Shown: in pieces, positions 8,373 through 33,696 of the stretch
Layout of the letters: each line of letters starts with the position of its first letter
Numbering within the stretch: position 1 is the first letter of the stretch
Source: Nitrospirota bacterium
GTDB taxonomy: Bacteria > Nitrospirota > UBA9217
Assembly: GCA_963663225.1 (NCBI GenBank)
Contig: OY760142.1
Coordinates: 2,400,001 to 2,464,000, forward strand
Reading direction: 5' to 3'
DNA length: 64,000 nt
Translations under genes and position numbers: made by a program
Notes under the pieces: model-generated
What the model saw: only the letters and a program-made list of their open reading frames with translations
Databases searched by the model: none
What the model was told of the DNA's origin: nothing

Positions 8373-9761
8373 ATGTCTGTGCAAACCGAAGTTCCCCTTC
8401 AAAAACTTCCTCCTCAAAACCTCGAAGCTGAGCAAATGGTCCTCGGAGCGATTCTCATAGAAAATGACTCCATGAACAAGGTTATCGATCTCATTGAGCC
8501 CGATGACTTCTATAAAGACGCGCACCGGCGGATTTTCAGGACCATGATCGACATGTTTGAGTCCGGAGAGGCCATCGATCTGATAACGCTGACAGACGCG
8601 CTTCGCGGAAAAGTCGGGCTTGAAACAATAGGCGGAGCGTCCTATCTTGCCTATCTGGTAAGCGTGGTGCCGACGGCTGCAAATATCAAAAACCATGCCC
8701 GGATTGTGCGTGAAAAGGCCGTTCTAAGAAAACTGATCCACACCGCAACGGATATTATAACCCAAAGCTACGATGATTCGCGGACGATCGTTAACATCGA
8801 TGAACTTCTCGACCGTGCGGAAAAATCGATTTTTGAAATTGCACAGAAGAAAATTCGCGAATCTTTTGTTTCGATGAAAAACATCGTGGGGCACAGTTTT
8901 GCCATTGTTGAAAAACTGTATGAGCGGAAGGAAATGGTCACCGGTCTTCCGACCGGTTTTGTCGACCTCGACGAGCGTACCTCGGGGCTGCATCCCAGCG
9001 ATTTGATTATTGTCGCCGGCAGGCCGTCCATGGGTAAAACGGCGTTTTGTCTGAACATAGCTGCCCATGCGGCTATTGAGAAAGGGAAAAGCGTAGGCAT
9101 ATTCAGTCTCGAAATGGCCAAAGAGCAGCTGGTATTGCGCCTGTTGGGATCCGAGTCGCGGGTGGATGCCCATAAACTGCGGACCGGCCATTTGTCCCAG
9201 CGTGATTGGACCCCCCTGTCCAATGCTGCGGGCAGGCTGGCTGAAGCGCCGATTTTCATCGATGATACGGCCGCGATATCAGTGCTTGAAATGCGCGCGA
9301 AGGCCCGAAGGCTGAAGGCTGACCAGGGGCTGGATCTGATTATCGTTGATTATCTTCAGCTTATGCGCGGCAGAGGGGATGAAGGCAACCGTGAGCAGGA
9401 AATATCAAGCATTTCACGCTCGTTAAAAGCCCTTGCCAAGGAACTGCAGATTCCGGTTATTGCGCTCTCGCAGTTGAACCGTTCAGTGGAAACGCGTCCC
9501 GGCAAGGATAAAAAGCCATTGCTCGCAGACCTGCGCGAGTCCGGAGCCATTGAACAGGATGCGGATGTGATATTATTTATCTATCGGGACGAGGTCTATA
9601 ATAAATGCGAATGCCCGCCGGATGGGGAATGTCTTTGTGGCCAGAGAGGCCGGGCAGAAGTGATCATCGGCAAACAAAGAAATGGTCCCATCGGCAAGGT
9701 AGATTTGACATTTATCAATCGGTTTACACGGTTTGAAAATTCGGAGAAGAGAGAGCTTTAA
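8373..9761 (+). CDS. dnaB: Replicative DNA helicase
   Basis: PPQNLEAEQ, GRPSMGKT, IVDYLQLM, LSQLNR, DLRESGAIEQDAD, KQRNGP. Confidence 0.97.
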   Translation: MSVQTEVPLQKLPPQNLEAEQMVLGAILIENDSMNKVIDLIEPDDFYKDAHRRIFRTMIDMFESGEAIDLITLTDALRGKVGLETIGGASYLAYLVSVVPTAANIKNHARIVREKAVLRKLIHTATDIITQSYDDSRTIVNIDELLDRAEKSIFEIAQKKIRESFVSMKNIVGHSFAIVEKLYERKEMVTGLPTGFVDLDERTSGLHPSDLIIVAGRPSMGKTAFCLNIAAHAAIEKGKSVGIFSLEMAKEQLVLRLLGSESRVDAHKLRTGHLSQRDWTPLSNAAGRLAEAPIFIDDTAAISVLEMRAKARRLKADQGLDLIIVDYLQLMRGRGDEGNREQEISSISRSLKALAKELQIPVIALSQLNRSVETRPGKDKKPLLADLRESGAIEQDADVILFIYRDEVYNKCECPPDGECLCGQRGRAEVIIGKQRNGPIGKVDLTFINRFTRFENSEKREL

Positions 9762-9850
9762 CAGGCGGAAATTTATTTCCCTTGCAGGACGTTAAAAACA
9801 CCGCTGCACTGTTTTATAACCACAGCATATTTTTCTTTTGGGAGGGACCC

Positions 9851-17900: not shown

Positions 17901-18644
17901 GTTATAGCAGGCACGACAGTAACGATGAATGGCAAAACGCAGGCCATGGCGAGACTTTATTTCGGGACAGGTGACAGAGAGCATCCGTTGAACAGGGCCG
18001 TGGTTGATCGCTTCTATGAAGTCCTCGACAAAGGACAGTTGTCAGCGGTAACAGAAGCGAAATTAGTGGATGTTACAGATGATCTCCTCCAGACCGGGAC
18101 CGATACGCAAGTTTCAGCAGAATATGCAAGACTGAGCGAAAAAGAAGACTCTACCAATACAAATTATTACGGCTGGTATATCAGGCTCAATAGCGGAGAT
18201 AGAACAACGCAGGTTCTCTGCAACGGTGTGGCCTGTCCCGGTGAAAAGGTGTTGGCACAACCCACGGTCTATAATGGTGTGGTCTATTTTACGACGTATG
18301 CTCCGACAACAGATACGTCCAGTTCAGATCCTTGCAGCACGGGAAATCTCGGTACGGGTTACACCTATGCGGTAAAATATTGGAGCGGTGCTTCTGTTTA
18401 TAATTACGATACGTCTAACGACTCTCTCTATAGCAGCTACAAAAGTAATTCCTATGCAACCAGCTCAGGTTCCAGTAATGTTCTATTGCGGACTGATCGT
18501 CACGTGGCGCTGTCGAGCGGAATACCATCCAGTGTTGTTGTTGTGCCTGGGCAGTCACCCTTAATCGGATGTGGCGGTGGACTTTGTACGACAAACCTGT
18601 CCACGGGTTCGCGCGTTTTAAATATTTATTGGCGTGCTAATTAA
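14907..18644 (+). CDS. pilY1: PilY1/PilC pilus tip adhesin (cluster 1)
   Basis: Signal peptide, vWA MIDAS-like DTTGSM, TPL, ITDG, LGDILHS, GSNDGMLHAF, Ca-loop DSNYDGYVD, FGTGD. Confidence 0.92.
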   Translation: MLKKEIFFAALLVLTLAIGVSPRYAVATPDQFVGDSAIYGGQPTVLQPNVLIIIDTTGSMADPPTSSGTTTTVNYSSSTTFDKTPNCYDSSGLIGYCDPTVVYDASYNYFNSSVSNITTSCFGSNPQSSLSTYGYYNGYKLNSDGSCCTKTTGSGSSKKTTNCGSAQYQIGNYINWVYDYNQSNALSKLEIAQSVIGTLIMSTSSVKFGLMGFRYLSGANKGATLVSATVSSGTYISEVKDMDTIFTGTVTNREALVQTLNTLTAQGGTPLGTSLFEALRYFQGGASLSGSSIGITSGVYTTPIEYGCQKNYVIFITDGMSNSDSSSVLTSTIYNTYSSYDGTAGSAYKSNINHSLAGVAKYMYEHDLLSGVTGTQNVTTYTIGFGLSSTSSDEAEGIALLQLAADSSHGRGAYYAATSAQTLSKALTSVISQIFTVNTSFVAPVVPVNPQNNVYSGERVYMGFFKPESGADWAGNLKKYALASYTTSTTTYYSQVVDVNGSLATYVDENGDGYDDRDGLALPSGTSNGGFRATVPNVAKSFWSATADGSDVMSGGVGALLYSRSNAISCSTCSITGTPRKIYTYLGSSTDLTNSTNLFNVSNSNITATILGLPGSIISTSTTTDVKQLINYVHGFDVYDDNSNGSSTDKRSWSLGDILHSKPQVISYASYSFDAANEANCTKNKTIIYVGSNDGMLHAFNDCDGSEAWAFIPPDLLSTLQYLRDTTHTYFVDNSVQSYVYDANKNGTIDSGDKVILIVGLRRGGGVMNSTPTAGFYYALDVTDPSAPKYMWKISNAATGFTDMGEAWSDAKLSKILVGSSVKEAMFIGGGYDNCNEDSRFGSTQMFTGTCVTVTATTDGGVDSSGNPITSSGSALVSSLTSTNYKGRSVYLVELATLNSGVPDFSNSGSKIWGYTMTGSPALEFSMVSDMALIDSNYDGYVDRAYMGDSGGNMWRFDLTDTSTANWKVTKIFSANPGYTNYASDGSNGRKIFYRPSVVIAGTTVTMNGKTQAMARLYFGTGDREHPLNRAVVDRFYEVLDKGQLSAVTEAKLVDVTDDLLQTGTDTQVSAEYARLSEKEDSTNTNYYGWYIRLNSGDRTTQVLCNGVACPGEKVLAQPTVYNGVVYFTTYAPTTDTSSSDPCSTGNLGTGYTYAVKYWSGASVYNYDTSNDSLYSSYKSNSYATSSGSSNVLLRTDRHVALSSGIPSSVVVVPGQSPLIGCGGGLCTTNLSTGSRVLNIYWRAN

Positions 18645-31255: not shown

Positions 31256-31411
31256 ATATCTTGTTTATTTTGCAAACTGGAATTCAATTGCTTATTTGTC
31301 CGGAAAAAAATACTTTTTTCCTACCTTGACAAGCTTCATATCCCATTCTACACTAATATACAGAATACTTTTTTTCTGACATATCTAAAACTAATGCTGG
31401 AGGGTGGGGCA

Positions 31412-32059
31412 ATGATGGATAAGATTCGAATTATGCTGGTTGAAAACGATCCCGTTCATCAGCAGGAGATGGCTGCAGTCTTCGCCGCACAAAGCGATAT
31501 TGAAGTTATATCAATGGTTACGACGCGGGAGACAGCTGTCAAACAACTATCAACTGTTCCCGATATTCTGTTCCTGAACCCGGTTGTTCTGAAAGAACAT
31601 ACCTTTTCCCGGTTTATTCGCTCAGTGCATACCAAATCACCGCATACAAGAGTGATGCTTTATTTGACGGATGTGCCATCGGATGAGAGCCTGATCTCCG
31701 ATATTCGGTTGGGTATGAGGGGATATGTGAAACATACCGATTCGCCGGACATCGTACTGAAAGCTGCCCGTGCAGTGCATGAAGGTGAAATATGGGCCGA
31801 ACGCAGAATTCTCGAAAAAGCCATCGCGAAACCCATGATTTTGCCGGAAACTCTACAGGTACAGGTGCCTGGACTTTCTCCCCTTACAAACAGAGAAACG
31901 GAAATGCTTACCATGGTGTTGCAGGGCGCCTCGAACCGGGAGATTGCGAGCAGAAGCAGTATAAGCGAGCGGACCGTCAAAACGCACCTTTACCGCGTTT
32001 ATCGGAAATTAAAAGTTAAAAGCAGAACAAAGGCTATAGCCTTGTTGTCTCAGCAATAA
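31412..32059 (+). CDS. LuxR/NarL-family regulator with atypical receiver domain
   Basis: LTNRE...G.SNREIA....ISERTVKTH HTH; phosphoacceptor position reads DILFLN (Asn). Confidence 0.85.
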   Translation: MMDKIRIMLVENDPVHQQEMAAVFAAQSDIEVISMVTTRETAVKQLSTVPDILFLNPVVLKEHTFSRFIRSVHTKSPHTRVMLYLTDVPSDESLISDIRLGMRGYVKHTDSPDIVLKAARAVHEGEIWAERRILEKAIAKPMILPETLQVQVPGLSPLTNRETEMLTMVLQGASNREIASRSSISERTVKTHLYRVYRKLKVKSRTKAIALLSQQ

Positions 32060-32103
32060 GGCTTGTAAAAACAAGAATTGACGGAAATAAGACTTTTGAT
32101 CGA

Positions 32104-32131
32104 TTGACTTTTAATTTCTTATTGCTATTCT
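32104..32131 (+). promoter_or_regulatory. Sigma70 promoter of candidate ncRNA
   Basis: TTGACT-N16-TATTCT with extended -10 TG. Confidence 0.6.
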
Positions 32132-32141
32132 TTAAACATAA

Positions 32142-32319
32142 GCTGTGCTGTTAGGAGGCACGTTACGTGCCGAGGCGGCAATTCATCTGCGGCATATACT
32201 CCATCCCCCCCTTAACAAAAGTATAGGCCGTATGTGAGGCCATCAACGGGTGGCGCCGGAGTGCAGTTGCTGTGGACCTATCCACAGCAAGATGAGACTG
32301 CATATTGAAACAGCACAGC
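32142..32319 (+). ncRNA. Candidate structured ncRNA of unrecognised family (~180 nt)
   Basis: Perfect 11-bp 5'/3' closing stem plus four internal helices; own promoter and terminator. Confidence 0.6.
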
Positions 32320-32323
32320 ATCT

Positions 32324-32389
32324 AAGGCGTCTCGATAATACATCAGGAAAAGATTTAAGAAGCAGCCATCGGGACGCCTTGTCTTTTTC
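32324..32389 (+). terminator. Intrinsic terminator after candidate ncRNA
   Basis: AAGGCGTCTCGAT...ATCGGGACGCCTT then GTCTTTTT; loop is unusually large. Confidence 0.55.
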
Positions 32390-32454
32390 ATGGTATTTCC
32401 CTGCCAAATTCTATATTTCTTGACGCCTCGTCATAATATCTGTATCATGACCCT

Positions 32455-33696
32455 ATGATATATATACTCTTTTTGCTTTTTATCGCAGTTGTCGGCACCG
32501 GGTACTGGCTAAAGTATCTGAATTTGTCTTATCTTAAAATACACGGTCATACGGTTCCGCCGGAATTTGAAGGCAAAATAGATCCTGATGTTCTTCGCAG
32601 AATTTCCGATTATATTGCTGAAAATAACAGAATAGGACTAATCGAGTCACTTGCGGATAATTTTTTGCTCGCGCTTTTTCTCTTTGGCGGATTGCTGGAA
32701 ATCTATGACCAATGGATTGCTTCCTGCGCCGGATCATTTATAGGAGCAGGGGTGCTCTTTGTCCTGATTCTTCTGGCTGTCGGTACGGTGTTGGACATAC
32801 CGTTCAGTCTTTACAGCAATTTCAAGATTGAAAAACGCTATGGATTCAACACCATGACCATGCGCATCTGGCTGACCGACTTTATCAAATCGGCAATTAT
32901 TTCTTTTGTGCTGGGGGCTTTTGTCGTCATGGTCATCCTCAGCATTATTCAAGGGAGTCCGGTTCTGTGGTGGCTTTGGGTCTGGCTTTTTTTGCTGCTG
33001 TTCGGTGTTTTCATGATGTATGTTTCTCCTTACATAATAGAGCCGCTTTTTTTCAAATTTGAACCTATTAAAAAAGAAGGTTTGGAGGAAAAAATACGGA
33101 CTCTCGCGGAACGGGCAGGGATTAAAGTCAGCAAAATCTTTCAGGTGGATGCCTCCCGCAGAAGCAGGCACTCAAACGCATACTTTACCGGTATCGGGCA
33201 GGTCAAACGGATTGTTCTGTTCGACACCCTGATTGAACAGATGACCGAAGAAGAAATCCTTGCAGTTCTGGCGCATGAAATGGGCCACTGGAAAAAACGA
33301 CACGTGATCAAACGCTTAATCCAGACCGAAGCAATTGCCTTTTGCAGTCTGGTGGCGGCATTTTATCTTCTTGCATGGGAGCAGTTGCCGGCGCTGTTCA
33401 ATCTCGCTGATGCTTCATTTTATGTCCGCGTAATTATTGTGGGCTTTCTGGGGTTTTTGGTTATGTTTCCTCTTACTCCGCTGTTTTCTTATTTATCACG
33501 GCGCGACGAGCAGGAGGCGGACCGATTTGCGGCTGAATTGACGGGAAATCCGAAAGCCATGGCCTCGGCGTTGGTTCAACTTTCGAAGGAAAATCTTTCC
33601 AATTTGCACCCACATCCCCTGTATGCACAGTTCTATTACTCTCACCCTCCGGTGGTGGAAAGAATCAGAAAATTGAGGGCGCTGAGCGATAGGTAA
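32455..33696 (+). CDS. M48 family (Ste24/CAAX-type) membrane zinc metalloprotease
   Basis: NAYFTG.G..KRIVLFDTL, AHEMGH, E.EAD, YSHPP..ERI. Confidence 0.92.
   Translation: MIYILFLLFIAVVGTGYWLKYLNLSYLKIHGHTVPPEFEGKIDPDVLRRISDYIAENNRIGLIESLADNFLLALFLFGGLLEIYDQWIASCAGSFIGAGVLFVLILLAVGTVLDIPFSLYSNFKIEKRYGFNTMTMRIWLTDFIKSAIISFVLGAFVVMVILSIIQGSPVLWWLWVWLFLLLFGVFMMYVSPYIIEPLFFKFEPIKKEGLEEKIRTLAERAGIKVSKIFQVDASRRSRHSNAYFTGIGQVKRIVLFDTLIEQMTEEEILAVLAHEMGHWKKRHVIKRLIQTEAIAFCSLVAAFYLLAWEQLPALFNLADASFYVRVIIVGFLGFLVMFPLTPLFSYLSRRDEQEADRFAAELTGNPKAMASALVQLSKENLSNLHPHPLYAQFYYSHPPVVERIRKLRALSDR

Follow-up and report, generated by a model that had tools for sequence, protein, structure and literature searches.

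A probable structured RNA gene with an exposed C-rich loop, conserved within one family of Nitrospirota

We have analyzed a stretch of 64,000 nucleotides (nt) from a Nitrospirota bacterium (GenBank assembly GCA_963663225.1, contig OY760142.1, positions 2,400,001 to 2,464,000), referred to here as the window and numbered from its first letter, in which an initial annotation had proposed an independently transcribed, multi-helix RNA at 32104-32389. Our results leave us highly confident that this element is a real, conserved and structured RNA gene on the plus strand. They show an architecture made up of a closing stem (P1), a long arm with an exposed C-rich loop, a variable 3' arm and a terminator hairpin that is conserved in sequence. 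The RNA family is new and uncatalogued, and in kind it is ordinary, namely a bacterial small RNA (sRNA) with a C-rich seed loop. As a whole, the interpretation given in the initial annotation is partly supported.

Transcription of the RNA would be driven by a sigma-70-type promoter at 32104..32131 (+), which was identified by a promoter scan and consists of a -35 box, TTGACT (32104-32109), a 16-nt spacer with an extended -10 TG, and a -10 box, TATTCT (32126-32131). This promoter had already been read from the window, and the pattern TTGACA, about 16 nt, TGnTATnnT is retained among the homologues described below (42 upstream regions aligned on the -35 box). The promoter ends 10 nt ahead of GCUGUGCUGUU, the 5' strand of P1, and its geometry predicts a transcription start near 32138-32140. 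A length of about 180 nt had been proposed for the RNA; once the terminator hairpin is counted, the transcript should be about 250 nt long and extend roughly over 32138-32388. Abutting the -35 box on its 5' side is a further conserved element (32083..32098, +; GGAAATAAGACTTTTG in the window), and in the same 42 aligned regions the consensus of the 25 nt upstream of the -35 box is TGCAAYTCCAnAAAATRCRACTTTnG. This element may, to judge from its position, be an activator site or an UP element. Contigs of relatives that are about 95% identical, from two sequencing runs, carry six single-base insertions or deletions within 32212-32357, which speaks for a non-coding RNA region; the genes on either side show one compensating pair of such changes only. 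Two read sets labelled 'RNA?' (X15 and X19) behave as DNA, X15 being equal to the DNA run X14, and have no bearing on expression.

Folding of 32140-32321 gave a minimum free energy (MFE) of -79.8 kcal/mol, compared with -55.5 +/- 4.4 kcal/mol for dinucleotide shuffles (z -5.5; none of 200 shuffles folded as stably), and inclusion of the terminator (32138-32391) gave -99.9 kcal/mol (z -5.6). Because stability on the opposite strand is almost as high (z -4.9), the strand cannot be assigned from folding energy alone. The sequence features listed in the initial annotation were all found in place, and every helix that it described was recovered in the MFE fold of 32140-32321 (all features on the plus strand). 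In P1, GCUGUGCUGUU (32142..32152) pairs perfectly with AACAGCACAGC (32309..32319), as had been claimed, across a separation of 157 nt, and the 3' strand is supported by covariation as well as by the fold. P1 encloses a local hairpin of 5-6 base pairs (bp), GGCACGUUACGUGCC (GGCACG/CGUGCC, 32158..32171), which is confined to a single genus (g1); the long arm (32176..32258), built from CGGC/GCCG, UUCAU/GUGAG, the helix P3 (UGCGGC/GCCGUA, 32188-32193 with 32227-32232) and UAUACU/AGUAUA; the hairpin GCCAUC-AACG-GGUGGC (32239..32254), which overlaps a conserved motif, CCAnCAnG; and the 3' arm, GUGCAGUUGCUGUGGA / UCCACAGCA .. ACUGCAU (32261..32303), which varies in sequence and length. The apical loop of the long arm, CCAUCCCCCCCUUAACAAA (32201..32219), is predicted to be unpaired and contains a conserved run of C residues, seven in the window (32205-32211), which is the proposed seed. 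The intrinsic terminator (32323..32389) has a 14-bp stem, UAAGGCGUCUCGAU / AUCGGGACGCCUUG (32323-32336 with 32368-32381 in the fold of 32138-32391), a 31-nt loop and a U-run, UCUUUUUC. Folding thus bore out a terminator that had been proposed from the letters alone and that a simple terminator scan had overlooked because its loop is too long. A word search for the hairpin and P1 found the element as a single copy in its own genome. A second occurrence of GCTGTGCTGTTA (contig position 2681618) and a copy of TCGGGACGCCTT (contig position 2696587), considered as possible members of a repeat family, were rejected, as by eye they lie in unrelated, apparently coding sequence with no such structure.

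Homologues of the RNA were found in most genera of one GTDB family. A BLAST search against 41 relatives returned close copies and two more distant matches on the terminator only; a match in another genome (G011) proved to be a chance match inside a coding region. Through the NarL/LuxR-type gene that lies upstream of the RNA, 44 loci were collected, of which 37 were scanned with a covariance model, R1 (242 positions and 26 pairs, from a 27-sequence MAFFT alignment; alignments were made with MAFFT and Infernal), and 32 matched it at E ≤ 0.001. The remaining seven loci showed, by eye, no promoter, C-run or hairpin. R1 matched 41 of the 64 genomes of the window's GTDB family, representing 16 of its 19 genera and nearly always in single copy, and 23 of the 32 family genomes with a completeness of 90% or more. 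When the phylum was sampled evenly, R1 matched 17 of 27 additional family members and 1 of 123 genomes from other Nitrospirota families. This one match (G141; locus L094, 1532-1714, minus strand) was not counted as a member, as it has only a terminator-like hairpin in common with the RNA and no synteny. The hairpin reads GGCGUCCCGAU, loop A, AUCGGGACGCC, then a U-run, and its stem is the same as that of the sRNA terminator. There are also loci in which the RNA appears to be reduced or missing. One locus (L042) looks member-like by eye, yet is not matched by R1, and in three others (L039, L041 and L043) the structured RNA is absent, about 40-130 nt following the regulator gene. L039 keeps the TTGACA promoter, followed by a short CCCCCC stretch and a small hairpin with UUUU, and is not matched by R1; its sequence gives the impression of a copy that is reduced or decaying.

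Comparison of the homologues argues strongly for the predicted pairings. Collection of homologues and a covariation check had been suggested at the outset; 43 sequences were gathered, and compensatory changes exceed those in shuffled controls. Over the 26 pairs, 96.4% of the cells are paired in the 43 model-aligned sequences, compared with 89.7% in the shuffles, and 16 pairs are changed on both sides, compared with 7.1 (0 of 500 shuffles as high). None of the 500 shuffles reached the observed values on all five measures, and controls in which the pairing was slid had 33-49% of cells paired; a caveat is that these are related sequences whose alignment was fitted to the model. The 27-sequence MAFFT alignment has 94.6% of cells paired across P1, the P3 core (4 bp) and the terminator stem, and 12 pairs are changed on both sides as against 4.9 in the shuffles, again with 0 of 500 as high. 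By helix, in the 43 sequences, P1 has 94.8% of its cells paired and changes on both sides in 9 of 11 pairs; the P3 core has 97.4% paired cells, and 3 of the 4 pairs are so changed; and the terminator stem is 97.7% paired, with both-side changes in 4 of 11 pairs and 2 of 11 invariant. Among 1,080 cells there are 83 G·U and 19 A·C. This excess of G·U indicates that it is the plus-strand RNA that is under selection, in agreement with the way in which promoter and U-run are oriented. As far as aligned sequences can tell, these results show that the helices are maintained by compensatory changes and that the plus strand is the functional one.

What is conserved throughout the family is a core. Only P1, the GCGGC/GCCGC of the long arm with the C-rich loop, and the terminator stem are conserved family-wide, and the family-wide consensus fold recovered only P1, P3 and the terminator, the interior not being alignable. 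P1 retains GACUGCGCUGUU in most members. The terminator stem is nearly invariant (GGCGUCYCGAU/AUCGGGACGCC), most of its variable pairs alternating between G-C and G·U only, whereas its loop ranges from about 3 to 45 nt; in aligned homologues, the hairpin is followed by a U-run. Two hairpins that the initial annotation had included, GGCACG/CGUGCC and GCCAUC/GGUGGC, are present in the MFE fold of the window and do not hold as family-wide features; they are lineage-specific. In most other members, the GGCACG/CGUGCC stretch forms long-range pairs with sequence 3' of the long arm. The 5' segment and the segment 3' of P3 share a mean of 14.7 MFE pairs, compared with 8.1 after shuffling, and at least six such pairs occur in 35 of 39 sequences (4 of the 43 rows were dropped). 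A consensus fold of one subgroup (8 sequences) showed long-range P2 helices below P3 with some compensatory changes; a second subgroup (9 sequences) yielded little. Indirectly, these models suggest that in most members the long-range pairing may form one long arm beneath the C-loop. For GCCAUC/GGUGGC, family-wide pairing was 69.7% compared with 67.6% in shuffles (72 of 500 shuffles as high), with no covariation above controls; the motif GAG..CCAnCAnG is conserved with or without formation of the hairpin. The 3' region forms a hairpin in most members and has no family-wide alignment. A pseudoknot between the loop CCAUCC and GGGUGG, also proposed earlier, was not upheld, as the G-run partner is not conserved beyond the genus.

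On the predicted folds, the C-rich loop is the best-conserved exposed element of the RNA. A C-run of at least five residues is present in 35 of 40 members and of at least six in 34 of 40, and its mean predicted probability of being unpaired is 0.84, compared with 0.38 elsewhere in the RNA. The length of the run varies among close relatives (loop consensus CUUCUUCCCCCCC; window CUCCAUCCCCCCC). We favor a trans-acting, possibly Hfq-assisted sRNA because the exposed C-run is conserved, because 6C and sX13 provide a precedent and because Hfq is present. Such an RNA would pair in trans, through its single-stranded C-run, with G-rich ribosome-binding regions of mRNAs, in the manner of 6C and sX13, and this pairing would block or alter translation, with the U-tailed terminator hairpin and the Hfq of the genome as possible aids. 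Its transcription could be subject to activator control via the element upstream of the -35 box, possibly by the adjacent NarL-type regulator, and read-through from the regulator gene could yield a form derived from the 3' untranslated region. On identity and mechanism taken jointly, i.e., a structured sRNA of about 250 nt, belonging to one Nitrospirota GTDB family, whose C-run pairs in trans, our judgment is evenly balanced. Pairing through the C-loop, as a mechanism in its own right, is drawn from analogy, and we put it forward tentatively.

Several observations weigh against this proposal, and simple searches for targets brought up no conserved partner. Five of the 40 members have a short C/U-rich stretch or none (C-runs of 3-4 nt in four, none in one). 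The exact complement of the consensus loop is not enriched, with 14 sites outside the sRNA gene in the 64 genomes compared with 9 for a reversed control, and 5 of the 14 sites lie in one conserved coding sequence. No sign of co-evolution with the loop was seen in the start region of the neighboring regulator (cognate combinations, -13.7 kcal/mol; non-cognate combinations, -13.9 kcal/mol). The top-ranked start regions of the own genome had no functional theme, and several were internal start codons. The best-scoring of all belongs to an open reading frame (ORF) of 165 amino acids with a signal-peptide-like start, whose ribosome-binding site is a G11 run (contig 2231300-2231350, +); its only orthologue, in G002, has a G9 run, and this candidate exists in only 2 of the 64 genomes. 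Sequence alone allows that the G11 ORF could be a target of the sRNA or could carry a slippage-prone tract of the phase-variation type. Finally, a length of 250 nt, several helices, the internal-loop motifs GAG..CCAnCAnG and a near-invariant terminator stem exceed the needs of a seed and a terminator, and a protein partner would also fit these features. A further site, complementary at 18 of 19 positions (contig 18229-18246), lies upstream of an MFS transporter gene; its conservation is uninformative because it is kept only in G004, which is about 95% identical. In the genome at large, G-runs (equivalently C-runs) of at least six are under-represented, with 399 on both strands compared with about 1,090 expected from base composition; there are 68 G-runs of at least seven.

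Searches against known RNA families found no counterpart, as the initial annotation had anticipated. Rfam 15 gave no match at gathering score over the whole window, only chance matches (snoZ196 and RAGATH-30, both upstream of the RNA) at E ≤ 10 in 31900-32600, and nothing on the RNA at E ≤ 1 in 14 homologous loci. A literature search of titles and abstracts found none on this RNA or on any Nitrospirota regulatory RNA, the supplementary tables of large motif-discovery papers being outside its scope. RoxS/RsaE of Firmicutes is a conserved sRNA of about 100 nt that directs C-rich motifs against Shine-Dalgarno regions and whose transcription is controlled by a response regulator; its fold differs from that of the RNA described here, and it has no Rfam match at the locus. 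The 6C sRNA of Actinobacteria (Mycobacterium B11/6C) is much smaller. According to a published study of 6C (PMC6486639), that sRNA is independently transcribed and pairs through conserved, exposed C-rich loops with G-rich single-stranded sites in several mRNAs, which is the mechanism proposed here. However, 6C has several C-rich loops as opposed to one in a branched fold of about 250 nt, belongs to a different phylum, shows no Rfam link to our RNA and acts without chaperones, whereas the genome studied here has Hfq. For sX13 of Xanthomonas, a published study (PMC3771888) states that apical C-rich loops require G-rich motifs near the translation starts of repressed mRNAs. This RNA has three stems with three C-rich loops, in contrast to the single C-run here, is Hfq-independent and has no sequence or covariance-model similarity to the RNA in the window. 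Multiple hairpins with C-loops, as in 6C and sX13, are therefore not a feature of this RNA, which has one conserved C-run per molecule, and the likeness lies in the proposed mode of action, by analogy, and not in membership. Traits of Hfq-associated sRNAs are present: the RNA combines a promoter of its own with a U-tailed intrinsic terminator, and the genome has an hfq gene (PF17209, 109.6 bits, contig 67341-67526). In the same genome, a single contig that is 98.99% complete, CsrA had no PF02599 match at E ≤ 0.01 and ProQ was not found; with no CsrA/RsmA partner found, the RNA does not conform to a sponge of the CsrB/RsmY type. Three tandem Hfq-domain matches (66.6, 56.9 and 18.7 bits) lie at contig 9183-9820 (+) in open frames of 210 and 139 amino acids and, on sequence, may represent a multi-Hfq-domain protein.

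The RNA lies between two protein genes that are context and not part of it. Upstream is a NarL/LuxR-type regulator (31394..32059, +; Pfam and NCBIfam) with a GerE helix-turn-helix and an atypical receiver domain, and downstream is a gene for an M48 (Ste24/HtpX-like) peptidase, which with its promoter occupies 32420..33696 (+). The promoter of the latter (TTGACG, 17 nt, TATCAT; 32420-48) lies between the terminator and the M48 start and is visibly conserved in homologous loci, in line with the earlier claim that the next gene has its own promoter. The usual order is maf, regulator, RNA, M48: maf is upstream in 40 of 43 loci, the regulator upstream in 39 of 43, a count inflated by the 34 of 43 loci that were found via the regulator gene, and M48 downstream in 30 of 43. 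In four loci of one genus (g11), the RNA directly follows maf, with neither the LuxR-type nor the M48 gene; because it is kept there without either neighbor, we regard it as an independent gene. Its independence, asserted in the initial annotation, is borne out also by a promoter and terminator conserved in about 40 homologues, by the separate promoter of the downstream gene and by the presence of M48 downstream in only part of the loci. No terminator was found by simple scan between the regulator gene and the RNA, and therefore read-through into the RNA may be possible. Some features of the neighbors themselves may be recorded. The regulator is not matched by Pfam Response_reg even at E ≤ 10. 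At its phospho-acceptor position (LFLNP), Asn is found in the window and in 31 of the 45 orthologues read, and Asp in only 8. Translation probably begins at the ATG at 31412 or 31415, which is preceded by GGAGGGUGGGG. The -10 box of M48, TATCAT (32443-32448), ends 6 nt ahead of the ATG (32455), a spacing that recurs in homologous loci and suggests that the M48 mRNA may be leaderless.

The serious rival to a trans-acting sRNA is a specific protein partner. The RNA could be a protein-binding or scaffold RNA, with the internal-loop motifs, P1 and the terminal hairpin as recognition sites, that sequesters or delivers a protein. This protein might be a regulator or a nuclease, or it might be the neighboring NarL-type protein, and the C-run could be a protein contact or one of two functions. 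Such a role would account for paired regions that are conserved beyond the needs of pairing, as in the invariant pairs of the terminator stem (2 of 11) and the GACUGCGCUGUU kept in P1, for a GAG..CCAnCAnG motif that is kept irrespective of the hairpin, for the size and branching of the RNA and for its linkage to one regulator gene (39 of 43 loci). However, no candidate partner was identified, and CsrA and ProQ were not found; the RNA persists without the adjacent regulator in 4 loci; and the linkage is inflated by the way in which the loci were collected. We consider this explanation unlikely on balance, although it is the one that deserves most attention. A more specific version, in which a dedicated ribonucleoprotein or signalling module, specific to this Nitrospirota family, has the RNA as its RNA half, with a specific protein reading the terminal hairpin, P1 and GAG..CCAnCAnG, appears to us distinctly improbable. 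In such a module the reader might be the NarL-type regulator, which would need an input other than phosphorylation because its receiver mostly lacks the phospho-acceptor aspartate, and the C-rich loop might serve as an output or sensing surface.

Three other explanations are unlikely. A cis-regulatory leader of the M48 gene (riboswitch or attenuator), with the hairpin as the terminator of an expression platform, would fit an ornate, conserved fold followed by an intrinsic terminator and the position of M48 on the same strand, 53-290 nt downstream in 29 of 30 M48-bearing loci (706 nt in L051). Against it, a separate, conserved M48 promoter intervenes, the downstream gene is not constant (no M48 within the 500-1,600 nt examined downstream in 13 of 43 loci), no conserved alternative pairing with the terminator was seen and the strong promoter of the RNA itself sits right behind another gene, so that we give this explanation little credence. 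It is even harder to credit an element acting at the level of DNA, with the inverted repeats as protein-binding palindromes or mobile-element remnants, although both strands fold nearly equally and the repeats are conserved in sequence. The numbers of G·U and A·C cells in the 26 pairs point to selection for RNA pairing on the plus strand; the two arms are separated by 157 nt in P1 and by 3 to 45 nt in the terminal hairpin; the element is single-copy and syntenic across 16 genera, unlike a mobile element; and the promoter and U-run are oriented for plus-strand transcription. Equally hard to accept is an additional, divergent RNA of the 6S type with RNA polymerase as its binding partner. Some bacteria do carry two 6S RNAs, and the RNA resembles 6S in its length and in having its 5' and 3' ends joined in a closing stem. 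However, 6S is rod-like with a central bubble, whereas the RNA here is branched and lacks a central bubble resembling an open promoter. RF00013 has no match at the locus even at E ≤ 10, whereas the canonical 6S RNA of this genome is found elsewhere (contig 1011616-1011797, +; 101.1 bits), and so the initial annotation was right to set 6S aside.

In summary, we add a clearly delimited RNA family that has a promoter, a covariation-supported fold and a range of 41 out of 64 genomes of one family. It can be used for catalogues of the Rfam type and for the annotation of genomes known mostly as metagenome-assembled sequences. The favored explanation of a trans-acting sRNA offers a testable hypothesis, namely that a C-run seed acts on G-rich ribosome-binding sites in an organism in which Hfq is available. 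The conserved promoter element may define a regulon of the unusual, aspartate-less NarL-type regulator, and should the terminal hairpin prove to be bound by a protein, this RNA would go beyond a routine sRNA.

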